Positions 10,461 to 52,895 of a stretch of 64,000 nucleotides of DNA are shown here, in pieces; the stretch's first letter is position 1; the number at the start of each line of letters is the position of its first letter. Position numbers and translations under genes: made by a program. Source of the DNA: a bacterium (lineage in GTDB: Bacteria; Patescibacteriota; CPR2; UBA1875; JAJYID01); NCBI GenBank assembly GCA_030647205.1, contig JAUSJO010000002.1, forward strand, positions 177,112 to 241,111, read 5' to 3'. The notes under the pieces were generated by a model. It saw only the letters and a list, made by a program, of their open reading frames with translations. It was not told the DNA's origin and did not search any database.

Positions 10461-10760
10461 TTGTTTAAGAAAGGAAAAGCATTGGAAACAGAAGCAAACA
10501 AGCTATATGTCGGAAACCTGCCTTACAGCATGACCGACGAGTCTTTGGCAGAACTTTTCACCTCATTTGGTGAAGTTACCGAAGCAAAAGTCATTTCTGA
10601 CAAGTTTTCCGGTCGTTCAAAAGGCTTTGGTTTCGTAACCATGGCTGATGAGAAAATGGCCGAGAAAGCTATCGCTGAAATGAATGGCAAGGAAGTTGAA
10701 GGACGAGCAATCGTTGTCAACGTTTCAAGACCAAAAGAACCAAGACCAAACAGATACTAA
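10461..10760 (+). CDS. RRM-domain RNA-binding protein (glycine-poor bacterial Rbp type)
   Basis: RNP-2 LYVGNL and RNP-1 KGFGFVTM motifs. Confidence 0.8.
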   Translation: MFKKGKALETEANKLYVGNLPYSMTDESLAELFTSFGEVTEAKVISDKFSGRSKGFGFVTMADEKMAEKAIAEMNGKEVEGRAIVVNVSRPKEPRPNRY

Positions 10761-10788
10761 GATATCTTTAAAATCTTGATTTAAAAGA

Positions 10789-10822
10789 AAAATACCTCGA
10801 AAGGGGTATTTTTCTTTTTGGG
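10789..10822 (+). terminator. Rho-independent terminator after RRM gene
   Basis: AAAAATACCTCGAAAGGGGTATTTTTCTTTTT hairpin + T-run. Confidence 0.6.
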
Positions 10823-10939
10823 ACTTTTTGTTTTTCATTTATTTTGTTTGTGATATAATTTTTATATACTGTTTAAGGCAAAAGAAGGGAGGGTTGGATC
10901 GAGCCAAAGAAATCCCTTAGAAAAAGTAGGAAGATATCT

Positions 10940-13900
10940 ATGAGAGTGAAATCTCTTAAGTTTTTACGTAGTTTGAGGTTTCATACTACTTTTGCTTTGC
11001 ATTTAAAAGCCCACAAAAATAGCTGGTACAAAGAGTGGCACCAGTGGCGTTTTCATCATCATTTCCATGCGGCAATGTTTGTTTTTTATACTGTAAGTGT
11101 TCTTTTGGGATCTTTTGCAACACTGCTTCCGAACGCCAACAATAAAGCATTGGCAGCAGCCCTGAACTATGATCAAACTTTTGATACCGGAACCGGACTG
11201 ACATACGATAGCAGTAAAATAAATATCCCCGGTGATGGTTTGGCTACCTTAAAATCCCATACGCCAGGCAGTGACTGGATAGCGACAGATAATGATGGTG
11301 GATACAACTGGAGTTATAGGAAGGCTATCACTATCACAAATCCGAATGCCACGAATGACTTTCAGGTCCAGCTGACTGGTATAGATACGGTTTTGGGCGG
11401 GAAAGTGCAAGCTAATTGCTCCGACATGCGTTTTACCTCTGATAATGGTGTGACTGTTATACCACATTGGGTTGAGTCCACAAGTTGCCCATCTGCCTCT
11501 ACTACGATATGGGTAAAGGTGCCTGCCACGAAGACAACCATATACATGTATTATGGAAATTCAAAACCAGAGTGGATGGCAAGAGAAACTAATCGCACTT
11601 GGCGTGGTGTGGCATCTTCCTCAGACGGCACCAAACTGGCAGCAGTAGTCAATGGCGGTCAAATATATACTTCAACTGACTCCGGCGCCACCTGGACCCC
11701 AAGAGATTCTAGCCGTGCCTGGTGGAACATCACCTCTTCTTCAGATGGCACCAAACTGGCAGCAACAGTCAACAACGGCCAAATATATACTTCAACTGAC
11801 TCCGGCGCCACATGGACTCCGAGAGAGTCTAGTCGTGGTTGGGACGCAATGTCTTCCTCCTCAGATGGCACCAAGCTGGCAGCAGCAGTTTGGGGTGGTC
11901 AAATATATATTTCAACTGACTCCGGCGCCACTTGGGCAGCCAGAGCTTCTAGTCAAAACTGGGCCAGTGTTAGTCTCTCTTCAGACGGCACAAAAATAGT
12001 GGCAACAGCGGATAGTAGCCAAATCTACACAACGACTATACCCAGTAGTGATACGGCGGTATTTGAGGATGTTATTAGTAATGTGCAGGGTGCCTGGGAA
12101 ATGGGTGATAATCCAGGGGGTGCGGGCGTGGATTCATCTGGTAATAACCTTACAAGCACACTGAACGGTACAGCTGAAGTCAGCGATAGGAATAGTAGAA
12201 CCGCCAAAGCTCGCAACTATGCTGCCGGTGGTGATGGTGTAGATAATATAACAGTAAGTGACAATACTGTTATAAGGCCAACACCAGGAACTGTGATTAC
12301 CCTTTCAGTTTGGGCCCGATCTGGTGATAACACCGACACTTCTTATATTATAAAGAAAAAAGAAACTTATTCTCTAAGGATTCTTGCAGATGGGACGATA
12401 AATACCAATTTCTTTATTGCTAGTGCGTGGAGGACGTGCTCAAGTGCAGTTGGTGCCTTCCCAGAAACCAACACATGGACTCATCTAGCTGTAACCTATG
12501 ACACTGTGGGTGGCTCATATAAGATCTACAAAAATGGAACAGAGGTTGCCTCCTGTCCAGCTCAAACAGGCGATATCTCGTCCGTGACTAACACGGAATT
12601 GCTACTGGGTACCTATAACTTTGTTAATAATGACTGGAATGGTGATCTGGATGATATAAGGGTTTACAACAAGGTTTTGCCTGTTGCAGATATGCAGAAG
12701 CTTGCAGTGACCTCAAATATAAGTGAGTTCAGTACCGCGCATCCAAATATGGAATATGTCAAGAAGTATACCGCCGGTCTAAGCGTCGGCGCACCAAGCA
12801 GTGAAGAGGGGATTGTCTATAATGACAACCCCAGTATAGGTAATACAGCAGCGATAAACATGAGTAAGCTCGTGGGCTTTACGGGGACGGCCGGCGGTGG
12901 CTCGACCGGCACTTTCGAATATCAGTTATCACCGGACAATGGGGCTCATTGGTATGAATGGTTTGAAGGTGATGATTGGTATGAAGTGACAGGATCAACT
13001 AGTACTATTGACCAAGCCGCTGTTGATCAGTTTAACGAGAGGTTTGCCACGCCCGACACAGCTGGTTATATACAGTTCAAGTGGAGAGCCGTTTTAATTT
13101 CTAATGGGACGCTTAGCCAGATACCTAAACTCGACGAGGTTACTTTTAGCTATTATTATGATACGGCGGATCCGGACAATGTAGTCCAGTCTGATGCTTC
13201 ATATGGAGGTAACTCACTAAATCAAGCGAGTTATTATAACTACATCCAGCCTATATTTGACTGGTCTTCATATGCTCCACTTGATAATAATAGTGGAGGA
13301 GGAGAGTCAAACTCCGGCATAGACGGCTACTATGTTTTATTCTGTAGTACCGCATTGAACAACGACACTGACTGTAATCCGGCAACTAATGGATATTCCA
13401 CTTACACAACAGGTACGACATATACTGCGCCTGACATGACAGGATGGACAAGTGATAACTATTATCTAAGAATAAAAACCAAAGATAAGGCTGGAAACAT
13501 ATCTGATACCACCTCAGTTCCCTTCGTTTATCATTTTGACGTTAATAAACCTACTAATCCCCCAACGCTTACTAGAACTCCATATGCTCCGACAGATGTA
13601 CAAAACAACTTCCGTTTTGACTGGTCGGGAGCAACAGATCCTGACCCAGACGGAGCGGGGTCACTTGAAGCTTCGGGGATAGCCAAGTATCAATGGCGAA
13701 GAGCAATCGATGATCCTGTAACCGGCTGGACAGACACTGTTAATACCTATGCTACAGGTGTCTCTGCCTATCAAATTGGTGAAAACTTGTTCTATGTCAG
13801 GACAGTTGATAATGCTGGGAATGTTGCGGATGGCTATAGCCAGATCAGATATCTCTGGTCCGGAAATGCTCCGCCGGCTCCGACAAATCTCGAAGTAGTC

Positions 13901-19340: not shown

Positions 19341-20501
19341 ATGCAGAGAGGTGTAGCTACATTTACCTTAGACTGGGGGAAGTGTCCGCCGTGGTTGTTC
19401 CGGCGGATGGTTTCACTTGGGCGCGAAATGACTGAAACGCTCATTGCCGAGTATGGACCGGATGAGTTCGTCAAAAGATTGGCTGATCCGGTTTGGTTTC
19501 AGTCGCTTGGGACAGTTCTAGCTTTTGACTGGAATGCGAGTGGACTTACGACTATTCTTACAGCGGCCCTTAAAGAGTCTATTCGTGGTCAGGAGCGTGA
19601 TCTTGGCGTCTTTATCTGCGGGGGCAAGGGCAAAACTTCACGGAAAACTCCGGATGAGATAATGAATTGGGGCCAAAAGTTATCTTTGTCTGATGGCAAA
19701 GCCGAGAATTTAGTATATAACTCCAAAATGAGTGCTAAGGTGGACAGTTCTCTCATTCAAGACGGCTATCAAATCTATCATCATAGTTTTATTTTCTCGA
19801 AAAATGGTGCTTGGGCGGTTGTCCAGCAGGGTATGAATACCGAGGAGCAGACGGCGCGGCGTTATCACTGGTTCTCTGATGATATCAAGGATTTGGTTGT
19901 TGAGCCGCATAAAGGCATCGCTTCGCAAAGAATCAATAAGCTAAATAGTACCTTGAATATGTCTTCTAAAAAGAGCGATAAAAATAGGCAGATTTCAACA
20001 GAGCTCGTGAACTCAAACTATAAAACAATCATGAAAGACATAGAGATCTTGCGCCGGCACTCATCTGACTTGTCGCAAATGATTAGTTATCGTGAAAATA
20101 ATGGTGACAAAACTACATTAGCTTCCCTTGCCCGAAAGGAGTTTAAAACTCATCCCGTGATGGTGGAGGACTTTGGCAAAAGCAAATATCTGGAAAGAAT
20201 TCTAGGGAAACTTACGGATGAAAAACCGGATAATTATGAGTCTTTGCTTGCTACGAAAGGAGTTGGGCCGAAAACGATTCGAGCACTTTCGCTAGTTTCT
20301 GAAATTATTTATGGCGCAGATGCATCATATGAAGATCCGGCCAGATATAGTTTCGCTCACGGCGGAAAAGATGCAACCCCTTATCCGGTAGATAAGGAGA
20401 CCTACGACAAAACTATAAATACTATGAGGGAAGTAGTTAAAAAAACCAGAATTAATCCTTTGGAAAAAGATAAAATTTATAAAAGGCTCAGTCCTTTGTA
20501 A
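19341..20501 (+). CDS. DUF763-family protein (function unknown; family common in archaea)
   Basis: N-terminus GVATFTLDWGKCPPWLFRRMVSLGREMTETLIAEYGPDEFVKRLADPVWFQSLG recalled as DUF763-like; GC by eye higher than neighbours. Confidence 0.4.
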   Translation: MQRGVATFTLDWGKCPPWLFRRMVSLGREMTETLIAEYGPDEFVKRLADPVWFQSLGTVLAFDWNASGLTTILTAALKESIRGQERDLGVFICGGKGKTSRKTPDEIMNWGQKLSLSDGKAENLVYNSKMSAKVDSSLIQDGYQIYHHSFIFSKNGAWAVVQQGMNTEEQTARRYHWFSDDIKDLVVEPHKGIASQRINKLNSTLNMSSKKSDKNRQISTELVNSNYKTIMKDIEILRRHSSDLSQMISYRENNGDKTTLASLARKEFKTHPVMVEDFGKSKYLERILGKLTDEKPDNYESLLATKGVGPKTIRALSLVSEIIYGADASYEDPARYSFAHGGKDATPYPVDKETYDKTINTMREVVKKTRINPLEKDKIYKRLSPL

Positions 20502-22262: not shown

Positions 22263-22337
22263 GCGGGTATTGTATAATGGCTATTATGTCACCCTTCCAA
22301 GGTGAAGATGCGGGTTCGATCCCCGCTACCCGCTCCA
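22263..22337 (+). tRNA. tRNA-Gly (anticodon TCC)
   Basis: acceptor GCGGGTA/TACCCGC, anticodon stem TCACC/GGTGA loop CTTCCAA, T-loop TTCGATC, CCA encoded; promoter GGTATAAT at ~22244. Confidence 0.7.
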
Positions 22338-22340
22338 TAA

Positions 22341-22418
22341 GCGCCCTTAGCTCAGTTGGATTAGAGCGTCTGGTTTCGGCCCAGAAGGCCGCAGGTTCGA
22401 GTCCTGCAGGGCGCACCA
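22341..22418 (+). tRNA. tRNA-Arg (anticodon TCG)
   Basis: GCGCCCTTAGCTCAGTTGGATTAGAGC..., anticodon loop TTTCGGC, T-loop TTCGAGT, CCA encoded. Confidence 0.8.
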
Positions 22419-22427
22419 AAATATCGT

Positions 22428-22505
22428 GGTGGCTGTAGCTCAGTTGGTTAGAGCATCGGTTTGTGGTACCGAGGGTCGTGGGTTCGAATCCCATCAGCCA
22501 CCCCA
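22428..22505 (+). tRNA. tRNA-His (anticodon GTG) with extra 5' G(-1)
   Basis: G-1 + GTGGCTG acceptor pairing CAGCCAC, anticodon loop TTGTGGT, T-loop TTCGAAT, CCA encoded. Confidence 0.8.
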
Positions 22506-22563
22506 AGCATAAGCAGTATAAAAGAGACTTCATAATGGTCTCTTTTTGAGTTAAAATTGCACT

Positions 22564-23250
22564 ATGGTATTAAAAATTGCACGAAGAGGAGCGTCTGGTT
22601 ATTGTCCTGAAAACACAATGGCTGCATTTGATAAGGCGGTAGAGATTGACTGTGATACTATCGAGTTTGATATTCATAAAACCAAAGATGGTCATATCAT
22701 TGTTATGCATGATGACAATGTTCAGAGAACGACAGATGGTCTGGGAAATATCAAAGACTTAACACTCAAAGAAATTAAAATGTTTCATGAGCCAAATGGC
22801 GAATCTGTCCCAACACTACAAGGAGTTTTTGACTTGTTAAAGAATAAAAAAAGAATGATGCTTGATATTAAGGACCAAAATATGGAGAAGGAGGTTCTTA
22901 GCTTGGTAAATGATAACGATTTAGAAGAATACGTTATCATTGACTCAGACTTCCCTGATGTTGTAAAAAAAATAAAAAAGATGAATCCTAAAATTCATGT
23001 TTATCTTGGTGGGGTAACAAAGGATAATTATAAATCGGCCGTCCAAGAAGCTAAAATCATTGATGCTGAAATGATAAAAGTGGAAAATATCTTGGTTAAT
23101 GAAGATTTAGTGAAAGAAGCACATAACAATGGTATAGGAGTGTATGTTTGGGGCGCAGAAGAAACAAATGATATTAAAAATATGCAGGATTTAGATGTTG
23201 ATGCTATTGTCTGCGATTTCCCTGACAAGATTCCTGAATTCAGCTTCTAA
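22564..23250 (+). CDS. Glycerophosphodiester phosphodiesterase (GDPD family)
   Basis: IARRGASGYCPENT...IEFDIHKTKDGHIIVMHDDNVQRTTDG motifs. Confidence 0.75.
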   Translation: MVLKIARRGASGYCPENTMAAFDKAVEIDCDTIEFDIHKTKDGHIIVMHDDNVQRTTDGLGNIKDLTLKEIKMFHEPNGESVPTLQGVFDLLKNKKRMMLDIKDQNMEKEVLSLVNDNDLEEYVIIDSDFPDVVKKIKKMNPKIHVYLGGVTKDNYKSAVQEAKIIDAEMIKVENILVNEDLVKEAHNNGIGVYVWGAEETNDIKNMQDLDVDAIVCDFPDKIPEFSF

Positions 23251-23260
23251 ACTATTATTT

Positions 23261-23312
23261 CAGTTCTGACATCGCTAACTACCTGTCCTCCGAAGGAGGG
23301 TCCGACCCCAAG
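23261..23312 (+). repeat. Cassette-junction element copy A (CAGTTCTGACATCGCTAACTACCTG...CCGACCCCAAG)
   Basis: one of six related elements after successive genes; 3' half resembles tRNA-His 3' end; followed by hairpin 23327-23349 and TGCTAGAATAT -10. Confidence 0.7.
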
Positions 23313-23370
23313 TATAAGCATAATAAAAGAGGCAGAAATGTCTCTTTTTATGCTAGAATATAACTTGAAA

Positions 23371-23847
23371 ATGGATATTCAAATTAGGGAAGCTAAAATT
23401 GAAGATTATGATGATATTAACGCTCTTTACAAAGAAGTAGACGAGTTTCATTTTGAAATGAAGCCGAACCGACTAAAGGGCCCTGGTCACTTCGGGAGAG
23501 AAAAGCAGCATTTTGAGGGAGTAATTAAAAATAAAAACTCAACTATTCTTGTAGCCACTCAAGGCACTGCTATTGTCGGATTTGCGGAGTTAGTCATAGA
23601 GAACGAACCCGAGAGTAATTTTTTACATCCTGAGAACCATGTAGAAATTGAGTTTTTTGTGGTGAAGGAGTCCTATCGGGGTTCGGGCGTGGGAAGATTA
23701 TTGATGAGAGGAGTTGAAGATTGGGCAAAGGCGAAAAAAATCAAGGCCCTTACACTAAACGCCCATTCTGCCAATGAAATGGCATTAGGATTTTATCAAA
23801 AAAATGGATATAAAATAACCAGCATTAATTTGCGTAAAGATTTGTAA
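23371..23847 (+). CDS. GNAT-family N-acetyltransferase (start moved to MDIQIRE; ORF-track 23338 start lies in terminator/promoter)
   Basis: acetyl-CoA motif VVKESYRGSGVGRLLM...FYQKNGY. Confidence 0.75.
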   Translation: MDIQIREAKIEDYDDINALYKEVDEFHFEMKPNRLKGPGHFGREKQHFEGVIKNKNSTILVATQGTAIVGFAELVIENEPESNFLHPENHVEIEFFVVKESYRGSGVGRLLMRGVEDWAKAKKIKALTLNAHSANEMALGFYQKNGYKITSINLRKDL

Positions 23848-23853
23848 TTATTT

Positions 23854-23883
23854 TAGCTAAGACATCGTTAGTTATCTGACACC
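23854..23883 (+). repeat. Cassette-junction element copy B (degenerate: TAGCTAAGACATCGTTAGTTATCTGACACC)
   Basis: same position relative to stop codon; followed by perfect terminator AAAAAGAGTCTCAAATGAGACTCTTTTT (23896-23923) and TGTGATATAAT -10. Confidence 0.5.
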
Positions 23884-23942
23884 ATCTTAATGATTAAAAA
23901 GAGTCTCAAATGAGACTCTTTTTAATGTGATATAATTAGTTA

Positions 23943-24617
23943 ATGAAGTCAGAAGATTTGTCAGAAGAAGCAATTAGGGAAAATTGTCCTCATTGCAATA
24001 TAAAGTCTCAAGCTTTTCATGATTTTTTAGACGAATCAGACAATTTTTTTATTGTTTGCGATAGCCATCCTCTTGAAGAAGGGCATATCTTGTTGATTCC
24101 TAGGAAACATATTTCTTGTATTGGAGAATACCCAGACGATATTATTGATGAATTTTTAGATTTATATAAATATATTGCTAAATTCATCAAGAAAACGTAT
24201 GGAAGTGTGGCTATTTTTGAGCATGGAATTACTGGACAAACAGTTTTCCACTCACATATTCATTTTCTTCCATTTGAAGGCAATCCTGCCAACATAATTC
24301 CAGAGGGGAATGAATACATCCAACAGATTGATAGTGTTATTGATTTGAAGAAGATATTTAAAAAAGACGGTAAATATCTATTTTTCTCTATGGGAAAAAG
24401 TAATTGGGTTGTTGATACAAAAATTACTGCGCCTCGGTTTTTTCGCGACAGGTTTGCCATATCGTTGGGTAACAGAGAAAGGGCGGATTGGAAGAAGTTT
24501 CATTCCAACAAATCACTTATGCAAGAAGGCTATAAAGAAAACGAAGAGTGTAAAAACAAGTGGAAAGAATATAAGAGGAATGATCCTACAGACCTTATTA
24601 AGAGAACGTTACAATAG
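23943..24617 (+). CDS. HIT-family (histidine triad) nucleotide hydrolase/transferase with C-terminal extension
   Basis: CPHC N-terminal, GHILLIPRKHI, histidine triad HSHIHFLP. Confidence 0.65.
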   Translation: MKSEDLSEEAIRENCPHCNIKSQAFHDFLDESDNFFIVCDSHPLEEGHILLIPRKHISCIGEYPDDIIDEFLDLYKYIAKFIKKTYGSVAIFEHGITGQTVFHSHIHFLPFEGNPANIIPEGNEYIQQIDSVIDLKKIFKKDGKYLFFSMGKSNWVVDTKITAPRFFRDRFAISLGNRERADWKKFHSNKSLMQEGYKENEECKNKWKEYKRNDPTDLIKRTLQ

Positions 24618-24647
24618 TTCTGACACCTGCAACTACCCGACCCAAAG
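24615..24647 (+). repeat. Cassette-junction element copy C (TAGTTCTGACACCTGCAACTACCCGACCCAAAG; stop codon is part of element)
   Basis: followed by hairpin AGAGACCTCATTTGAGGCTCTTTTT and TGTTAGAATAT -10, RBS AAGAGGAG. Confidence 0.7.
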
Positions 24648-24721
24648 TATAATCATTATAGAAGAGACCTCATTTGAGGCTCTTTTTATGTTAGAATATT
24701 AATATTAAGAGGAGAGTGAAA

Positions 24722-25345
24722 ATGAATGAAGGCGTAAATCAAACAGGAGATTTACCAGAAATAAAATATGAAGATATTGAGGGTGAATTGTCCCGATCAC
24801 TTAATCATATGTTTTTGGAAAAATATTGGACAAAAGGTAAGACCAGCAAGGAAGCCATTGAAGAGCTAAATCTGCCACATGGATTAGAGTCGAGTGCGGG
24901 AACAAATTTTCCACCTGTTGCAGGGAGATCGGGTCTTCACCTTATGAGGATTTTGGGTCCTGGTCGCTCTGAATCTGAGAGGGAGTTTGGTCTTTCAGTT
25001 TTAAGAAACTCCGGCAAAATTAACTATGAAGAGGGTGAGATAGAAAATAACCGATTAAAGCACTCGGGTGAAGGTGCTGACACCGCTATGTTTTGGACAT
25101 TTTCACCCTATCTATACAAGGCGTTAGGTCAAAAAGGCTTATCAGATGAAGAGGCACTTAAAAAAACATTCTTGTGGGGTCATAATGAAAATGAAGAGGG
25201 AAAATATATACACCTAAGAGGTTTAGAAAAATACAAAAATGCTTGGATATTAATGCAACCCGGTGATGTAACCCATCAGTTTACCGAACAAGAAGCAAAT
25301 AGAATCGTTGATGAAGTTATTTTGGCAGAACAACCAGAAAAATAG
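24722..25345 (+). CDS. Hypothetical protein (207 aa; start at ATG after GAGGAG RBS)
   Basis: ORF only; no recognised motif. Confidence 0.4.
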   Translation: MNEGVNQTGDLPEIKYEDIEGELSRSLNHMFLEKYWTKGKTSKEAIEELNLPHGLESSAGTNFPPVAGRSGLHLMRILGPGRSESEREFGLSVLRNSGKINYEEGEIENNRLKHSGEGADTAMFWTFSPYLYKALGQKGLSDEEALKKTFLWGHNENEEGKYIHLRGLEKYKNAWILMQPGDVTHQFTEQEANRIVDEVILAEQPEK

Positions 25346-25373
25346 TTCTAATATCTCTAACTACCCGACCCCA
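25343..25373 (+). repeat. Cassette-junction element copy D (TAGTTCTAATATCTCTAACTACCCGACCCCATG)
   Basis: overlaps stop codon; followed by hairpin AAATCACCGATTTTACGGTGGTTTTTT. Confidence 0.7.
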
Positions 25374-25474
25374 TGAAAAAATCACCGATTTTACGGTGGT
25401 TTTTTCTTTGTGAATTAATGAATGGAAGGTTGGGAGACAAAGGAATATTAAAGAAACGAACTAAGTTGAATTTA

Positions 25475-25912
25475 TTATTTGAAGAAATCGAAATCATTAG
25501 CAATATGTTTTCCGATAGTCCTAGGAATATCGTTCCCAGGTCCTAATGAATCATAAAATTCTAATATTCTATCAACTTTCTCCTTGTTAAGGTCATCTTT
25601 GCTTAATCCGCTTTCTTCAATAGCCTCAATAATAAATGGAAAAGCACTGCTGCTTCCTGCGTAAGATTTTTGCCAGCGCTCAAGGAGGCCTTCGGCTCGT
25701 AACCTTTCTTCGTTTTCGTCATCTCTTTGCTTTAGTATTCTCTGGATTTCCTCATACCAGTCTTTCTCTTCTCTAAGATCGGGCATGTTTTCACCAACCA
25801 TATAATCTGCCGCTTTTTTTGCTTCGCCTTCTGAAAATACGTCATCAATTAATGCTCGATACTCTTCGCCGACTTCTCCTGAGGGAATTCGGCGGTTTTC
25901 TGGATTTACCAT
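25475..25912 (-). CDS. Hypothetical acidic protein (145 aa), only minus-strand unit in the array
   Basis: ORF only. Confidence 0.4.
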   Translation of the reverse strand: MVNPENRRIPSGEVGEEYRALIDDVFSEGEAKKAADYMVGENMPDLREEKDWYEEIQRILKQRDDENEERLRAEGLLERWQKSYAGSSSAFPFIIEAIEESGLSKDDLNKEKVDRILEFYDSLGPGNDIPRTIGKHIANDFDFFK

Positions 25913-25984
25913 TATAACCTCTAAGTTAATTTGTATAGATTATCTCATCAGTTTAGTTAAATTTGCAACTCACTTTCATAATTT

Positions 25985-26068
25985 CAGTCCTGACATCGCT
26001 AACTATCTGTTCGTCCCCGCCAGAGGTTGGGTAAACTCCGCTTTAACGAAGGATGATCCGACCCCAAG
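25985..26068 (+). repeat. Cassette-junction element copy E, long form (CAGTCCTGACATCGCTAACTATCTG + 46-nt insert + CCGACCCCAAG)
   Basis: lies upstream of MazG-like gene after a divergent gene; followed by hairpin AATAATACCTTTATGCAGGTATTATT and TATGATATAAT -10. Confidence 0.7.
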
Positions 26069-26124
26069 ATATTAAATAATACCTTTATGCAGGTATTATT
26101 TTTATTTATGATATAATCTACTTT

Positions 26125-26493
26125 ATGGATTATAAATACAAACATTCTGACGCCTCTCAGGAAGTAGATTATCCCAAATTAGTTAGGGACAATATTCCGG
26201 ACATAAATCTAAAACGTTGGGGCAAAGAGCTTGACCATCGTATTGCCACAGACGATAAAGAATACTTAGCCTACCTTCTCAAGAAACTAACCGAGGAGGC
26301 TGAGGAGTTACAGTTTTCGCCCGCTGAAGAAATTGGTGACGAGATAGCTGATGTTTATGAAATTATTGATGCGATTATAAAGGTGGTGGGTTTATCGAAA
26401 TCTGAAATCGAAAAATTTCAAAAAGTAAAAAGGACCGACCAGGGCGGTTTTGAAAAAAGAGTTTTAATGCTCTCTAAGAACATGCCCGAATAG
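26125..26493 (+). CDS. MazG-like nucleoside triphosphate pyrophosphohydrolase (YpjD-like small all-alpha NTP-PPase)
   Basis: KLVRDNIPD N-terminal motif and EE..E....DE acidic helices typical of MazG-type. Confidence 0.6.
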   Translation: MDYKYKHSDASQEVDYPKLVRDNIPDINLKRWGKELDHRIATDDKEYLAYLLKKLTEEAEELQFSPAEEIGDEIADVYEIIDAIIKVVGLSKSEIEKFQKVKRTDQGGFEKRVLMLSKNMPE

Positions 26494-26520
26494 CCTCAGT
26501 TCTGACATTGTCAATCGATT
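26494..26520 (+). repeat. Cassette-junction element copy F (degenerate: CCTCAGTTCTGACATTGTCAATCGATT)
   Basis: followed by hairpin AAAAGAGACCGATGAAGTCTCTTTTTTT and TGTGATATAAT -10. Confidence 0.5.
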
Positions 26521-26570
26521 AGAAAAGAGACCGATGAAGTCTCTTTTTTTGTTTGTGATATAATTTTTTC

Positions 26571-26939
26571 ATGGGAAAGATCAACTCAAAACTAATAGCT
26601 CCTTGTGGGATGAACTGTGGGATTTGTCTTCATTACTTAAGGGCAGAGAACAAATGTACGGGTTGTTTTTCGGGAAGGAAGGTAAATGGCAGACCCATAA
26701 AATGCAGTATAAAACTTTGCAAGGATAGACGCGGCGAATACTGCTTTGACTGCGATAAATTTCCCTGTGAAAGACTTGATCGATTGGACAAGAGATACAG
26801 AGAAAGATATGGTATGAGCGAAATTGAGAATTTAGAGTTTATTCGTGACAAGGGGATGGATGAGTTTATAAAGAGAGAGCGGGGGAAGTGGCAGTCTGAT
26901 AAGGGTATCCTCTGCGTTCATGACAAAAAATACTATTAA
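26571..26939 (+). CDS. Cys-rich small protein, DUF3795-like (putative metal-binding)
   Basis: APCGMNCGICLHY...CTGC...C..KLC....YCFDCDKFPCERL pattern. Confidence 0.45.
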   Translation: MGKINSKLIAPCGMNCGICLHYLRAENKCTGCFSGRKVNGRPIKCSIKLCKDRRGEYCFDCDKFPCERLDRLDKRYRERYGMSEIENLEFIRDKGMDEFIKRERGKWQSDKGILCVHDKKYY

Positions 26940-26982
26940 GGTTGTGTTATAATTGCCTCATCACATTAAAAAAGGAGTTTGT

Positions 26983-27312
26983 ATGAGCAATATGAAAATG
27001 GATAAGCCTTTAGCGCTAAAGACCTTGAGAAATACGGTAGCTGCCGCGATATATATTTTTGGCGTTTCGCAACTCATGGCTAACGGTGAAAGACTGTTTG
27101 GCAGTGAAGATAACCATACTTTTGCTCCATTTGCTATTTTGCTGCTCTTTTCACTCTCGGCTGCTGTTGTGGGCGGGCTAATCTTCGGTCAATCCGTATA
27201 CCTTTTTCTGGATAACAAGAAAAAGGAAAGCGTAACGGCGATATTCTATAGTATTGGATGGCTGGCGCTCATCACGGTACTTGGGTTTACCCTTTTGTTC
27301 CTAATGAAATAA
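26983..27312 (+). CDS. Small membrane protein (3 TM); start at ATG after AAGGAG RBS and TGTGTTATAAT -10
   Basis: ORF + promoter/RBS read directly. Confidence 0.4.
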   Translation: MSNMKMDKPLALKTLRNTVAAAIYIFGVSQLMANGERLFGSEDNHTFAPFAILLLFSLSAAVVGGLIFGQSVYLFLDNKKKESVTAIFYSIGWLALITVLGFTLLFLMK

Positions 27313-27395
27313 AAGCCTAAACTCGCTTGAGTCATAGGGGAGCCCAACATTAAAAAATAGAGTTTTTAATTTTGGGTAAAAAACACTTGACAAAG

Positions 27396-27430
27396 AGTAT
27401 ACGTATATTTATACTTATACCAGTACTATT
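27396..27430 (+). promoter_or_regulatory. Sigma70-like promoter TTGACA-N18-TATACT with AAGGAG RBS before 27447
   Basis: read directly. Confidence 0.5.
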
Positions 27431-27446
27431 AAAAAAGGAGAAGACC

Positions 27447-27956
27447 ATGGGTAATAAAACAATCTATGTGAAAGGCAGTGACGAAAACGTCTATAAAGAG
27501 GCACAAAAGATTGCAGGTGAAGCACTATCATCTGTCATCTCAAAGGCGCTCAGGGAGTTTGTCGACCGATCTAAGGCACTCAAGGGGGAGATGCGTGAGA
27601 TCAGCGTCAATGTTGGCTCAAAAGATGCTATGCGTGAGCAAAAGTTTATCGGTAACCAGATTGGCAAGTGGAGAGGTTTTTCTAAGGACAAGGAGTATTG
27701 GCAAACTGCCAAGGTATATGAAACGCAGAAAGGTAATATAGCCATTTTGCTAACGACTGTCTGTAAGGCGAGCTTGATGACAAATCCGAGAGATTGGAAG
27801 AAAAACCATGAATATTACAAAGATGTTGCTAACTCAGAACTACTCACAGCAAAAAAGCCAAAAGAGTTTAAGGACAAGATACCTGAAGATCTTTTGAAAA
27901 AGATAGAGGACTTGCTAAAAAAGGAAGAAAATAAAGTCGAATATTTGGACATCTAG
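27447..27956 (+). CDS. EXLDI-family protein (ends ...VEYLDI)
   Basis: C-terminal E-x-L-D-I motif characteristic of TIGR04342-type family (recalled); start moved to MGNKTIY after RBS. Confidence 0.45.
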   Translation: MGNKTIYVKGSDENVYKEAQKIAGEALSSVISKALREFVDRSKALKGEMREISVNVGSKDAMREQKFIGNQIGKWRGFSKDKEYWQTAKVYETQKGNIAILLTTVCKASLMTNPRDWKKNHEYYKDVANSELLTAKKPKEFKDKIPEDLLKKIEDLLKKEENKVEYLDI

Positions 27957-28031
27957 GCATTTTAGTAAAATAACACCTATTTTTAGGTGTTATTTTTGGT
28001 TATGATATAGTTTCAAAAAGGGATTTAAACT

Positions 28032-28283
28032 ATGCCAAAAGAAAAATTTGGGTCTGAAAAGGTTATTAAAATCAAAAAAGACGGACCGTATGTTGTGTGC
28101 GGTAATATTCCTATGGCGAAGCAGACCATCATTACCGATGAAGATGGGGTGTCTGTCCGTTGGGAAAAGGGAGAGGAATATCCGAGGATGGAACAGTATT
28201 CTCTCTGTCGTTGCGGCAACTCAGAAAATAAGCCATTTTGTGACAGTATGCACATACATACCGGATTTAGGGACGATGAATAG
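28032..28283 (+). CDS. CDGSH-type iron-sulfur domain protein (mitoNEET-like, variant CDSMH)
   Basis: CRCGNSENKPFCDSMH matches C-x-C-x2-S-x3-P-x-C-D-G-[SA]-H pattern with one substitution. Confidence 0.55.
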   Translation: MPKEKFGSEKVIKIKKDGPYVVCGNIPMAKQTIITDEDGVSVRWEKGEEYPRMEQYSLCRCGNSENKPFCDSMHIHTGFRDDE

Positions 28284-29696: not shown

Positions 29697-29822
29697 GATT
29701 GTATTTGCCATTTTATTTGGCATATTTTTTTGTTCCTTAAAAACTAGAAAAGGAGAAATTATCGACTGAAACCACTGTGTTCAAGTTATTACTAGAGGAA
29801 GGCATAAAACGAGGAGATCCAG

Positions 29823-30074
29823 ATGAACAATCGACAACATGGATTTGTAACTGGGTCTCATCAGGCATCAGAAGGACGCAGGGTCTGGACGGTGCGTGTG
29901 AAAGACCCAAGCAGCAAGTACGATGGGCGCAAGCTTGTCGTTGCTTCAGTTCGCGAAGAACTGGAGTTGGCAAGAGGACTTAATGTCCACTTTGCCATTG
30001 GCAGCGTAGATGACCGTGAAGGGAAAAAAACTCTAAGAGCGGTCGATGTATGCCTTGAAGAAGTAGGCGATTAG
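29823..30074 (+). CDS. Small protein of unknown function, first gene of GC-rich island
   Basis: 83 aa, GAGGAG RBS; markedly GC-rich codons unlike neighbours. Confidence 0.45.
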   Translation: MNNRQHGFVTGSHQASEGRRVWTVRVKDPSSKYDGRKLVVASVREELELARGLNVHFAIGSVDDREGKKTLRAVDVCLEEVGD

Positions 30075-30084
30075 CACTATCGTA

Positions 30085-31611
30085 ATGTCAAATCCGAAAA
30101 GGAGAGCCGAGATGGACAACCAGTCAAAAGTACGGGACATGTTTCAGGAAGCAATGCAGGGTGGGAGCAATCCTCTGAGTGAGGCGTTCGAACAGTTTAT
30201 ATCAACTCTGATGTCGGGTGCCGACGATCATGTCTATGATCCTTCTGTCGAGAGAACTGGTGACAAGGTCATCATTCCCGATGGAGCAAGTATCCCCGAT
30301 GTGATGTCGTCTCTGAGGCGCCAGCATATGATCGAGGAACAGGTCACAAAGATTCATTTTGACCTTCCTGTCTCTCCATGGGACGGTGCTTTGGCGCTGA
30401 CGAAGGCGATCAAGAAGAACATAGGCCCGATTATCCAGAAAGATGGCCTTTTTGGAGCACATCAGATGGATGTCGAGGTCGATCTTGGGAAGACCGTTTC
30501 CGTACCGTGGGGATACTTTGAGATTCCCGGTATGGACGACGCAGAAGTTCAGACTGATTACACGTTCAGAGATGGCCGCGTAGTCTTCCAGTGCAACATC
30601 GAGTGCAAGCGCAAGTATGAGGAGCGGGTTCGCCGGTTGATCGATACTGTTCGTGAGATAGCTGCGAAGGAGAGTCTCCATCGCGGTAAGGCGTTCAGTA
30701 TCGCTTTCCGCGATGAAGATGGAGATCCTATCCGGCTACCGATGCCGAAGTTCTTCGAATTCCTGGATGATGAGCCGATTTTCTCAACCGAGATGGAAGA
30801 GCAGATCGAAAGGAACGTTTTCGTTCCGATTCGGTATGCCGAAGAGATGCGGGAAATGGACGAGTCACTCAAGCGCGGAGTGCTTTTCACCGGTAAATAC
30901 GGTGTGGGCAAGACTCTGCTTGCGAGCCACATTGCTCGTATTGCTACGGCTGAGGGCTGGACGTTCATATATGTCAAGGACTCCAGGGAGCTTCCGGCGG
31001 CGCTTCGGTTCGCCCAGCAGTATCAGCCGGTAGTCGTATACGCTGAGGATGTGGATCGCGTAGCTGGTCCGGAACGTACCGATGATGTGAATGATCTCTT
31101 AAATGAGCTCGATGGTGTTGACTCGAAGTCGGCGGAAATTCTAACGATCCTGACTTCAAATCATCCCGATCATATCAACGCAGCTATGCTGCGTCCCGGA
31201 CGTGTCGATCTGGTGCTGGAAGTTCTGCCTCCTGACGCCGAAACCGTGCAGCGTATGATCATACGCTACTGCGGTGACGCGCTCGAGCAGAATGCTGACC
31301 TAACGGCAGCGTCACAGATCCTCGAGGGAGAGACTCCCGCGCGGGTTCGCGAAGCTATCGGTCGGGCAAAGCTCGAGTCCCTGCGTCGTACGGGAGATCG
31401 GACAGCGAAGATCACCGGTGATGATCTCGAGGCAGTTGCCAACGAGGTCAAGGCTGAGGCCAGCCTTATCCAGTCGAACGCAAAAGGCTCGGGCAAAGAT
31501 CATACTGCTCAGATCGCAGATGGGTTCGCTGATGTGATCAGCGCCGTAAAGGCATCTATGACTGATGGCGGCAACGGCCATGGTAAAAAGGACCAGATCG
31601 CTCGCGTTTAG
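30085..31611 (+). CDS. Classical-clade AAA ATPase with ~250-aa N-terminal domain of unknown function
   Basis: Walker A GKYGVGKT, Walker B VVVYAEDVD, sensor-1/SRH TSNHPDHINAAMLRPGRVDLV (Arg finger). Confidence 0.75.
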   Translation: MSNPKRRAEMDNQSKVRDMFQEAMQGGSNPLSEAFEQFISTLMSGADDHVYDPSVERTGDKVIIPDGASIPDVMSSLRRQHMIEEQVTKIHFDLPVSPWDGALALTKAIKKNIGPIIQKDGLFGAHQMDVEVDLGKTVSVPWGYFEIPGMDDAEVQTDYTFRDGRVVFQCNIECKRKYEERVRRLIDTVREIAAKESLHRGKAFSIAFRDEDGDPIRLPMPKFFEFLDDEPIFSTEMEEQIERNVFVPIRYAEEMREMDESLKRGVLFTGKYGVGKTLLASHIARIATAEGWTFIYVKDSRELPAALRFAQQYQPVVVYAEDVDRVAGPERTDDVNDLLNELDGVDSKSAEILTILTSNHPDHINAAMLRPGRVDLVLEVLPPDAETVQRMIIRYCGDALEQNADLTAASQILEGETPARVREAIGRAKLESLRRTGDRTAKITGDDLEAVANEVKAEASLIQSNAKGSGKDHTAQIADGFADVISAVKASMTDGGNGHGKKDQIARV

Positions 31612-31640
31612 GCGATTCTCTCGATCTAGTTACAAGTCCC

Positions 31641-31692
31641 CCGCTGACGTTAAGTCGGCGGGGGATATTTTTTATTTTTTTCTGTTATCGGA
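31641..31692 (+). terminator. Strong rho-independent terminator ending GC-rich island
   Basis: CCCCCGCTGACGTTAAGTCGGCGGGGG + long T-run. Confidence 0.75.
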
Positions 31693-31800
31693 GTGAGCTA
31701 GGAGGTATATGAAGGCGCCGAGAAAAACCAGGAATAGTCCTGTTCCAATAGGTGACCCCCAGCCAAGAATCGGATATAAGTCCATTTTTAGCTCCTTTAA

Positions 31801-31992
31801 TTATTTTTTATCTTTGACTTTGAAGTCACAGCACGACCAAGAGTGCATCGATCTTCTTTTAACTAATATAGAGATGCCGAACGCGATAAGCAGTAGCGGC
31901 CAGAAAATACTCCAGAAGTCCCCCGGAAGATAGCCGAGATTTTGTAGTAGCCATGCAATGCCGGCGACAATTATCATACTTGCAAATATCAT
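31801..31992 (-). CDS. Small 2-TM membrane protein
   Basis: ORF with hydrophobic helices; RBS-like GGAGTAAAAAATG. Confidence 0.35.
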   Translation of the reverse strand: MIFASMIIVAGIAWLLQNLGYLPGDFWSIFWPLLLIAFGISILVKRRSMHSWSCCDFKVKDKK

Positions 31993-32129
31993 TTTTTACT
32001 CCTTTTTATCTTCCTTTTATTATATTTTATTTATAGTAGTTTACAATAGCCTATGTATTCTGCTGTAATCTATCCATTTTTAGCATTCACAAATTGTGCA
32101 AAATCAGCTATAATAGTCAAGTTAAATCC

Positions 32130-32205
32130 GCCCTGGTAGCTCAATGGATAGAGCAACAGCCTTCTAAGCTGTAGGTTACTGGTTCGAGTCCAGTCCAGGG
32201 CACCA
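32130..32205 (+). tRNA. tRNA-Arg (anticodon TCT)
   Basis: acceptor GCCCTGG/CCAGGGC, anticodon loop CTTCTAA, T-loop TTCGAGT, CCA encoded. Confidence 0.85.
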
Positions 32206-32221
32206 GAGAAATTTAATATGC

Positions 32222-32297
32222 GGGTTGCTAGCTCAATCGGTAGAGCAACTGCCTCTTAAGCAGTAGGTTCTGGGTTCAAGTCCCAGGCAACCCACCA
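32222..32297 (+). tRNA. tRNA-Lys (anticodon CTT)
   Basis: acceptor GGGTTGC/GCAACCC, anticodon loop CTCTTAA, T-loop TTCAAGT, CCA encoded. Confidence 0.85.
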
Positions 32298-52426: not shown

Positions 52427-52797
52427 GCTAAGCAAGTCGGATGATCGCTCCGCAAGGAGAGGAAAGTCCGGGCACCATATGAGCAAGGTAGTTGCGAAAC
52501 GCAACCGGTCGAAAGGCCCGAGCCAGTGCCACAGAAACATATACCGCCTCAATTTATTGAGGTAAGGGTGAAAAGAGTGGGGTAAGAGCCCACAGCGTTT
52601 GCCGGTGACGGTAAATGGAGGTAAACCTTACTTGGTGCAAGTCCGGTGGGCTGAAGTTTTCCTAGATTGTGTCTTAGCTTTGCGAAAGCAAGGTGTGGCT
52701 CTAAAATAGCGAGGTGTTGCTCGCACTGAAAACTAAGGTCCGGACGCACAGATAGATGATCATCGATAACAGAACCCGGCTTATAGACTCGCTTAGC
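52427..52797 (+). ncRNA. rnpB: RNase P RNA (bacterial type A), with TGCTATACT extended -10 upstream
   Basis: conserved P4 strands AGGAAAGTCCGGGC and ACAGAACCCGGCTTA, CCAGTGCCACAGAAA, GGGTGAAA..GGTAAGAGCCCACAG; P1 GCTAAGCAAGTC/GACTCGCTTAGC. Confidence 0.85.
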
Positions 52798-52895
52798 AAT
52801 AAAAAAGTCTCGAATCCTTGAGGCTTTTTTGTATTTTTAAGTGCTGACAACGCAGAATTATTCATGTAAAATATAAAGACTAATCGGGATTTTTT

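Follow-up and report, generated by a model that had tools for sequence, protein, structure and literature searches.

In integrons and in CALINs, which are clusters of attC sites without an integron integrase (PMC4889954), mostly single-ORF (open reading frame) cassettes stand in an ordered array behind one primary insertion point, and each ends in an element of fixed orientation whichever way its ORF is turned. Tycheposons of Prochlorococcus and ssrA islands of Dehalococcoides, according to 10.1101/2020.12.28.424599 and PMC3146451, arise by serial integration at a tRNA-type 3' end, with older insertions pushed distally and attachment (att) copies between the units. The cis-mobilizable elements (CIMEs) that take part in the accretion of streptococcal integrative and conjugative elements (ICEs) are non-autonomous att-flanked units, arranged in tandem at one site and presumably mobilised in trans by the integrase of a related element. 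On Acinetobacter plasmids, short recombination sites enclose pdif modules of one or two genes, which have no recombinase of their own and presumably use a host enzyme. Here we compare with these systems a locus in a 64-kb stretch of the bacterial contig JAUSJO010000002.1 (assembly GCA_030647205.1; hereafter the window, which is all the DNA examined for this genome), in which at least six small units lie behind a tRNA-His gene and at least five of them end in a repeated element of ~33 nt, two further copies being degenerate.

The array is probably integron-like and composed of single-gene cassettes mobilised in trans, with the 3' end of tRNA-His as the primary site. This reading draws on the anatomy of the units, the confinement of the element to one locus, the variation in content between relatives and the occurrence of the same cassette with the same boundaries in two contexts, all of which are observed directly. 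We infer that the units move by conservative site-specific recombination through a circular intermediate, with the recombinase supplied in trans. A recombinase encoded elsewhere would act on a free cassette, presumably a circle, and join its element to the CCCCA of tRNA-His or to another element, with the crossover falling inside CCCCA, and repeated insertion and excision would build, permute and prune the array. The alternatives weighed below are, in order of plausibility, homologous exchange between junctions, decayed remnants of larger integrations, an RNA-level role of the element and a dispersed repeat.

The likeness to integrons and CALINs also includes stop codons that sometimes fall inside the element, heterogeneous cargo with an ORFan, and content that differs among close relatives. 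In function, too, the array resembles an integron, in that the same cassette occurs with the same boundaries beside different neighbours and the content varies among relatives. Three integron-defining features, however, are absent: an adjacent intI, attC structure and promoterless cassettes. No IntI is encoded in the 64 kb, and Pfam scans of 30 ORFs gave no Phage_integrase domain. It is the sequence of the element that is conserved (a 22-nt box and an 11-nt core), not a structure, and the element has no R''/L''-L'/R' inverted repeats; as the initial annotation had remarked, no GTTRRRY/RYYYAAC core pair is readable, and no attC-like hairpin was found. Each cassette here has its own promoter and terminator, whereas integron cassettes are mostly promoterless and use Pc. 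The primary site is a tRNA CCA end, in contrast to the attI site next to intI. The tRNA anchor, the cassettes and the elements lie at the following window coordinates.

22429-22505, + strand: tRNA-His(GTG) with encoded CCA (ARAGORN, Rfam); its last five bases, CCCCA, are 22501-22505
22506-23310, + strand: cassette 1 (GDPD), with terminator hairpin 22520-22547, -10 box TAAAAT 22552-22557 and element A
Element A, + strand: box 23262-23283, 18-nt hairpin insert 23284-23301, core CCGACCCCAAG 23302-23312
23311-23884, + strand: cassette 2 (GNAT), with terminator 23325-23349, extended -10 23351-23359 and degenerate element B 23855-23884
23885-24645, + strand: cassette 3 (HIT), with terminator 23893-23926, extended -10 23928-23936 and element C
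24616-24647, + strand: element C, short form without insert
24646-25373, + strand: cassette 4 (207-aa ORFan), with terminator 24662-24688, extended -10 24689-24697 and element D
25344-25375, + strand: element D, short form without insert, core CCGACCCCATG
25374-26066, gene on the - strand and element on the + strand: cassette 5 (inverted 145-aa gene), with terminator 25379-25405 and element E
Element E, + strand: box 25986-26007, 50-nt insert 26008-26057, core 26058-26068
26067-26520, + strand: cassette 6 (122-aa protein), with a hairpin, extended -10 26109-26117 and degenerate element F 26498-26520
26521-28283, + strand: distal units without a recognisable element (DUF3795 and membrane protein, EXLDI, CDGSH), with a promoter per unit

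The element consists of the 22-nt box AGTTCTGACATCGCTAACTAYC, an optional hairpin-forming insert of 18-59 nt, and the 11-nt core CCGACCCCAAG (CCGA-CCCCA), and without the insert it measures ~33 nt. The insert is 18 nt long in copy A and 50 nt in copy E, and is missing from copies C and D. The degenerate core AGTYCTRAYAYCKSYAACTAYC matched the window four times (23262, 24616, 25344 and 25986), compared with no match in 100 shuffles. In a repeat search of the window, copies A-E formed one family, with B placed in family D1 at 73% identity; of the copies described in the initial annotation, B and F are real but degenerate. A sequence model derived from the good copies recovers neither at a threshold of E=10, and F retains only CAGTTCTGACATTG... 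The inserts are variable hairpins. That of copy E is homologous to the insert of L011 copy 1 (L numbers denote loci of relatives), and the 18-nt hairpin insert of copy A is missing from the GDPD cassette in L027.

A sequence-only covariance model built from 11 copies was searched against both strands of 229 kb, comprising the window and 13 relative loci, and all of its 15 matches lie inside arrays. Pattern scans of 185,579 species genomes and of JGI metagenomes returned this tRNA-cluster locus only, plus chance matches inside coding sequence. The scan of one genome per species gave seven loci. Six are matches that fall within genes by chance; the remaining one belongs to a Patescibacteria metagenome-assembled genome (L003, the same species as L009 and L010) and is situated downstream of the tRNA-Gly/Arg/His cluster. 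A viral or plasmid source was sought in three IMG/VR pattern scans and by BLAST searches of 50,697 records from phages and 72,556 from plasmids, which yielded nothing or chance matches in coding sequence. These results make it very improbable that the element is a generic intergenic repeat, that is, a member of a repetitive extragenic palindrome (REP), miniature inverted-repeat transposable element (MITE) or terminator-associated family that is dense here by chance. That 64 kb were examined out of a contig of at least 428 kb leaves such a repeat some room; against it, no copy was found outside the array in the window or in ~165 kb of the relatives' non-array DNA, the global scans found this locus and chance coding matches, and the element is neither palindromic nor dispersed as REPs and MITEs are.

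The element has no evident fold. Among eight single-strand folds, z-scores for the good copies ranged from -0.6 to +1.3 and the degenerate copy B alone reached -2.0, while short-form elements fold at about 0 to -2 kcal/mol. Box and core are not complementary, a dyad check (AGTTCT-GACATCG-CTAACT) paired 4 of 7 positions, and no Rfam match was obtained even at E<=1. A classical attC site or a structured RNA was rejected on these grounds, since the folds are no better than those of shuffles (except B) and Rfam has no match. Readings as IS200/IS605, as a DDE transposon or as Xer/dif sites were likewise discarded, the ends having no matching hairpins, terminal inverted repeats or dyad symmetry; a target-site duplication would be just the 5-nt CCCCA. 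Transposons of the IS200/IS605 type have similar subterminal hairpins at both ends, on which a Y1 (HUH) transposase encoded within or close to the element acts. Here the left-end hairpins belong to at least four unrelated sequence families, the short-form right ends have no hairpin, and a Y1_Tnp gene, which the window does not have, occurs in L012 alone at a distance of 12 kb. The pdif modules differ in having 28-bp XerC/XerD sites with dyad symmetry (11-bp arms and a 6-bp spacer) in alternating orientation, whereas the present copies are without a dyad, are all direct repeats, and are chromosomal and anchored at a tRNA.

Every copy lies on the tRNA strand in the four arrays that have tRNA-His on the contig (the window, L010, L012 and L015), and in L011 and L027, whose contigs are without tRNA-His, the copies share one orientation. 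This orientation, set by the array and not by the gene, holds next to inverted genes (window E and L011 copy 2) and also at a unit that contains none (L012 copy 1). It bears on a possible role of the element at the RNA level, acting in the 3' untranslated region (UTR) on stability, processing or regulation, so that its recurrence would reflect shared regulation and not DNA mobility. The element does lie mostly between stop codon and terminator, overlaps the stop twice and ends in ACCCCA like the mature 3' end of tRNA-His. However, its orientation is kept at the 5' end of the inverted genes, outside the mRNA of that gene, and one L012 copy has no ORF in front of it; fixed orientation beside inverted genes or no gene argues against a 3'-UTR role. 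With no stable or conserved fold, no Rfam match and the presence/absence variation left unexplained, we regard an RNA-level signal as improbable.

What the element has in common with tRNA-His is short. The 26 nt upstream of CCCCA align to the tRNA-His body no better than shuffles do (P 0.36-0.49) and score alike against the other tRNAs of the window, and neither Rfam at E<=1 nor ARAGORN found a partial tRNA within the repeats. Only CCCCA(AG), 5-7 nt, is shared. A diverged 3' half of tRNA-His was accordingly rejected as an explanation of the element, its alignment to the tRNA body being at chance level and other tRNAs doing equally well. Because the upstream part is at chance level, the long similarity between CCGACCCCAAG TATAAGCATAATAAAAGAGGC and the tRNA-His end and flank, which the initial annotation had taken as resemblance to the tRNA, is explained by the shared core together with the homologous left ends of two cassettes, and not by mimicry of the tRNA. 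The resemblance thus holds for the CCCCA(AG) core and the flank that follows it, and its extension upstream of CCCCA does not; a derivation of the attachment site from the tRNA, as suggested there, is not demonstrable.

The flanks behind the core, in contrast, are related well above chance. The 70 nt after internal elements were aligned locally with the 70 nt after tRNA-His (shuffled mean 9.7, maximum 19). The flank after window C scored 45 against that of the L015 tRNA-His, the L010 tRNA-His flank scored 38 against L011 copy 2, the flank after window A scored 32 against the L010 tRNA-His flank, and the flank after window D scored 25 against the L020 tRNA-His flank. The sequence after D, CCCCATGAAAAAATCACCG..., matches the flank directly behind tRNA-His in L020, where the site is empty, and the left flank of cassette 6 is homologous to L012 copy 2 (score 46). 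tRNA-His and the element appear in these alignments as interchangeable left partners for the same right flanks. The base that follows CCCCA also varies with occupancy: occupied tRNA-His sites read AG, whereas empty sites read TG (L020) or TA (L017), and window copy D has CCCCA-TG followed by an L020-type terminator. At all occupied sites tRNA-His is intact, and the empty L020 site diverges from these starting with the base that follows A76. Since occupied and empty sites, as well as the two contexts of the GDPD cassette described below, switch at this point, the crossover probably lies inside, or at the end of, CCCCA (C72, C73 and C74-C75-A76 of tRNA-His), and CCCCA at 22501-22505 is the proposed site of primary attachment and of crossover. 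With 14 matches in the window versus 11 expected, CCCCAWG is no rare 7-mer, and more context must therefore be recognised.

The GDPD cassette provides a direct comparison of two contexts. In the window it stands behind tRNA-His and in L027, which comes from another metagenome, behind an element, and the homology switches exactly at CCCCAAG. Left of the core, where tRNA-His is compared with an element box, nucleotide identity is 58% with 11 gaps. From CCCCAAG through spacer, terminator and promoter it is 90.5%, in the ORF 93.6% (96% at the protein level) and in the element of the cassette about 90%; the terminator after the cassette is 84% identical, and farther on identity is 62%. The terminator variant GAGACTTCATAATGGTCTC accompanies GDPD in both contexts, showing that the terminator belongs to the cassette of the gene downstream of it. 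A JGI contig encodes a further, partial GDPD protein that is 98% identical to that of the window; should it share a contig with a JGI-encoded CCA-adding enzyme that is 81% identical to the window's, the cassette would be much closer than the backbone, which would point to recent horizontal transfer.

These boundaries bear on the strongest alternative, homologous exchange, in which element and terminator form a functional junction module and RecA-dependent recombination between the short repeats exchanges, removes or adds genes after natural transformation, as in the 'minimal mobile elements' of Neisseria; a site-specific recombinase of its own would then be superfluous. Competence and RecA functions are usual in bacteria of the candidate phyla radiation (CPR). 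The junction modules, including the terminator families, are common to units with different genes, the 22-33-nt direct repeats could support deletion, and no recombinase was found in the 64-kb window or the relatives' loci. Yet tRNA-His and element switch at a shared core of 7 nt with unrelated sequence on the left (58%, with gaps), and such a core is too short for RecA-type homologous recombination, which favours site-specific recombination. Nor does homologous exchange account for the origin of the element on each new ORF, and the AG or TG after CCCCA tracks occupancy. We therefore consider it unlikely as the main process, although it deserves more weight than the other alternatives. Since terminator families are shared between different genes, homologous exchange between junctions may also contribute, and a pure 'one cassette, one history' model is insufficient.

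To compare gene content, about six genomes of one narrow lineage were sampled. L010 and L011 came from the metagenome scan, and L012/L013, L015/L016, L017, L020 and L027 from contigs with homologues of the CCA-adding enzyme or GDPD; contigs ending at the tRNA cluster (L001, L014, L018, L019 and L021-L024) stayed outside the array comparison. The CCA-adding enzyme has relatives at 62-90% identity in metagenomes, among them groundwater metagenomes, and the named ones belong to candidate division WS5, Patescibacteria group and Saccharibacteria, which indicates that the lineage is CPR-like. The arrangement at each site is as follows.

Window: at least six units behind tRNA-His
L020: empty site, with CCCCATG directly behind tRNA-His and then a terminator and the gene of a DUF5667 protein
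L015: a single creatininase unit, flanked by tRNA-His and the L020-type terminator, with a degenerate element at its end
L012: an ORF-less unit (terminator and element), then a pyrophosphatase unit
L010: two genes, a small ORF and one for a membrane protein of 215 aa, an element after each, then EXLDI
L011: gene, element, inverted proB-like kinase gene, element
L027: element, GDPD, element, purD, element
L017: tRNA cluster inverted, no element

Five genomes (L010, L011, L012, L015 and L027) thus carry other genes between the same elements on the same backbone. The element was not found in the more distant relatives L017, L025 and L026. The initial annotation had named three outcomes that would speak against a cassette or site-specific integration origin: an element spread over the genome, conserved gene content, and tRNA-His similarity at chance level. 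All three went the other way, with every one of the 15 model matches in arrays, content that differs in the five genomes and is lacking in L020, and flank scores of 25-45 against a shuffled maximum of 19 together with GDPD in both contexts.

Serial insertion at a tRNA could also have left decayed remnants, if tRNA-His took up a succession of larger elements of phage, tycheposon or island type, each with an integrase, and each then shrank to about one gene and an att copy. Tandem integration at tRNA or tmRNA genes with partial-tRNA att copies is well documented, as 10.1101/2020.12.28.424599 and PMC3146451 describe, and the insertion at the 3' end of a tRNA that stays intact, the tandem accretion, the adaptive accessory cargo and the genome-streamlined host are common to those islands and this locus. 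In those systems, however, the units measure 3-20 kb, bring a tyrosine or serine integrase of their own and in many cases replication genes, and are separated by true partial tRNA copies with att sites of typically ~40 nt; the ~13 units found here in six genomes all have one or two genes in 0.08-1.4 kb, and their repeat is not a partial tRNA, sharing CCCCA(AG) only. The units contain no integrase fragments or other mobile-element genes, follow an orderly terminator-promoter-ORF-element architecture and include a GDPD unit that is intact with identical boundaries in two contexts. The IMG/VR pattern scans and the phage and plasmid BLAST searches did not find the element either. The same contrast holds for CIMEs, which are decayed ICEs of several kb with ICE-derived att sites, while the locus has uniform miniature expression cassettes and no known parental autonomous element. 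Decay of larger elements is therefore a doubtful explanation, somewhat less plausible than homologous exchange.

The anatomy of the units is uniform. The cassette layout is AG with an 8-15-nt spacer, an intrinsic terminator, an extended -10 promoter, one ORF in either orientation, and the element; the terminator at the cassette start is predicted to stop the tRNA operon or the preceding cassette. A hairpin and T-run follow every element, as the initial annotation had reported, although a simple consensus terminator scan picks out only part of them, and extended -10 boxes (TGNTAKAAT) occur at 23351, 23928, 24689, 26109, 26556 and 26945. These are 6 of the 22 matches in the window and fall inside ~4 kb, compared with a shuffle mean of 6.4 for the whole window. 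Because the extended -10 often stands just 6-7 nt before the ATG, the cassettes probably yield leaderless mRNA. The stop codons of the HIT gene and the 207-aa ORF overlap elements C and D as had been proposed, but the overlap is with the AG of TAG, which forms box bases 1-2 (base A at 24616 and 25344), and not with the whole triplet. Terminators of the distal units lie at 26521-26549 and 27968-27997. These units probably represent cassettes that have become fixed or are older, or else belong to the backbone.

No tyrosine, serine, DDE or HUH recombinase came to light in the 64-kb window, whether by Pfam scans of 30 ORFs, by inspection of the other translations or by a crude six-frame motif scan, in agreement with the initial annotation, and the gene tables of the relatives' loci list none save one IS200-like Y1_Tnp in L012. 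The DUF763 gene (window 19341-20501), which always lies two genes upstream of the tRNA cluster, was considered as a candidate and rejected: the protein is ~70% identical across many CPR classes and its gene adjoins empty sites too, which marks it as a core gene and not an array-specific enzyme. It carries a helix-hairpin-helix-like motif (GVGPKTIRAL) and has no PDB relative by sequence. The Y1_Tnp gene of L012 (142-807) is situated 12 kb upstream, between an RRM-protein gene and a giant DUF2341/FN3 protein gene; the syntenic window interval, 10760-10940, has no Y1_Tnp gene.

Several points weigh against an array of cassettes mobilised in trans. No recombinase was found in the 64-kb window, and the relatives' loci are without one except for the Y1_Tnp of L012; no excised circle, within-population empty junction or read-level heterogeneity was seen. 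The element is not demonstrably tRNA-derived and shows neither dyad symmetry nor a stable fold by which a known type of recombinase could be recognised. The terminators belong to few families, common to cassettes with different genes, and the sample comprises about six genomes from one narrow lineage. With these points taken into account, integron-like cassettes with tRNA-His as their primary site remain the reading we prefer. A further-reaching claim is more tentative: the array may represent a previously undescribed gene-capture platform of CPR/Patescibacteria, with the CCA end of tRNA-His as a fixed site, a non-palindromic, sequence-conserved cassette site of ~33 nt, self-insulated expression units with probably leaderless mRNA, and a novel or host-co-opted recombinase not beside the array. 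A full-text literature search, which cannot prove absence, turned up no account of arrays of this kind in CPR bacteria.

The genomes of CPR/Patescibacteria are tiny, and few mobile elements have been recognised in them. If our reading is correct, a compact, locus-specific cassette system would be one route to flexible gene content in CPR bacteria, whose acquisition of accessory genes is poorly understood; the cargo across the arrays includes purD, a proB-like kinase, GDPD, pyrophosphatase and creatininase. It would also be a second, independently evolved answer to the integron problem, with a sequence-defined element, a tRNA-end site and insulated, promoter-bearing cassettes, and it would offer a comparison for the question of cassette birth. 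A novel recombinase would define a new class of gene-capture system. The element could further serve as a 20-30-nt tag for PCR capture of cassette diversity from groundwater metagenomes, as attC primers do for integrons.

Ahead of the array, tRNA-His is the last of three tRNA genes arranged head to tail (tRNA-Gly, tRNA-Arg, tRNA-His; 22263-22505; ARAGORN, Rfam). Upstream of tRNA-His, beyond tRNA-Arg and tRNA-Gly, are the genes of a 111-aa membrane protein and the CCA-adding enzyme and the DUF763 gene. The genes downstream are small and unrelated, as the initial annotation stated, and belong to the families it named, as Pfam indicates and, for the 122-aa protein, the NCBI name.

22564-23250, + strand: GDPD gene (Pfam GDPD, 3e-41)
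23371-23847, + strand: GNAT gene (Pfam Acetyltransf_1, 5e-20)
23943-24617, + strand: HIT-domain protein gene (Pfam), with TAG stop 24615-24617
24722-25345, + strand: 207-aa ORFan gene without a family match, with TAG stop 25343-25345
25475-25912, - strand: 145-aa protein gene without a family match, with its own promoter, TTGCAA-18-GATAAT with TG
26125-26493, + strand: 122-aa protein gene, NCBI name NTP pyrophosphohydrolase, without a match in the Pfam scan
26571-26939, + strand: DUF3795 gene (Pfam)
26983-27312, + strand: small membrane protein gene (ORF list)
27447-27956, + strand: EXLDI gene (Pfam)
28032-28283, + strand: CDGSH gene (Pfam)

The cargo, with its mixed functions, one ORFan and a GC content of 36-37% (40.7% for the window), looks like a set of accessory genes. 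Among 5.8 billion proteins, the 207-aa protein matched only itself. PADLOC gave weak GNAT and HIT matches and nothing else that would assign the cargo a defence function.

EXLDI also occurs in other settings. In L010 an element lies upstream of the gene, and the EXLDI promoter region alone aligns with the window; a seventh degenerate copy of the element upstream of EXLDI in the window is not convincing, the L010 alignment covering the promoter alone. The promoter, a canonical TTGACA-17-TATACT, overlaps a palindrome (GTATACGTATAT.TATAC; window 27387-27447) that is conserved in L010 (5300-5420). An EXLDI homologue from the same 90%-identity cluster in L026 (10001-10558) stands behind methyltransferase, helicase, SMC and dnd-associated genes, with no tRNA and no element. 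Given this unrelated setting, the EXLDI gene moves between contexts.

The tRNA clusters of relatives hold small selfish-looking genes of their own (L012, 11915-12268 and 12427-12903; L023, 11749-12102; L024, 4630-4983; L017, 13263-13499). The tRNA-Gly/tRNA-Arg spacer holds a 23S_rRNA_IVP gene, the tRNA-Arg/tRNA-His spacer the gene of an HNH_3 endonuclease, and a GIY-YIG gene adjoins tRNA-Lys; the spacers between tRNAs are insertion hot spots too. In L012, a GC-rich non-coding stretch in AT-rich surroundings follows the last element (13560-13740) and is possibly a structured RNA.

Farther downstream in the window, a stretch of 51% GC (29700-32000; background ~40%) holds an 83-aa ORF (29823-30074) and a 508-aa AAA/STAND-like ATPase gene (30085-31611), the product of which has weak PADLOC matches to IetA and TRIP13. 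Immediately behind the stretch come tRNA-Arg(TCT) and tRNA-Lys (32130-32297). At the far end of the variable region, it has the appearance of an island acquired on a separate occasion. Beside tRNA-Glu, at 52429-52799, an ordinary bacterial RNase P RNA of class A (208 bits) is encoded.

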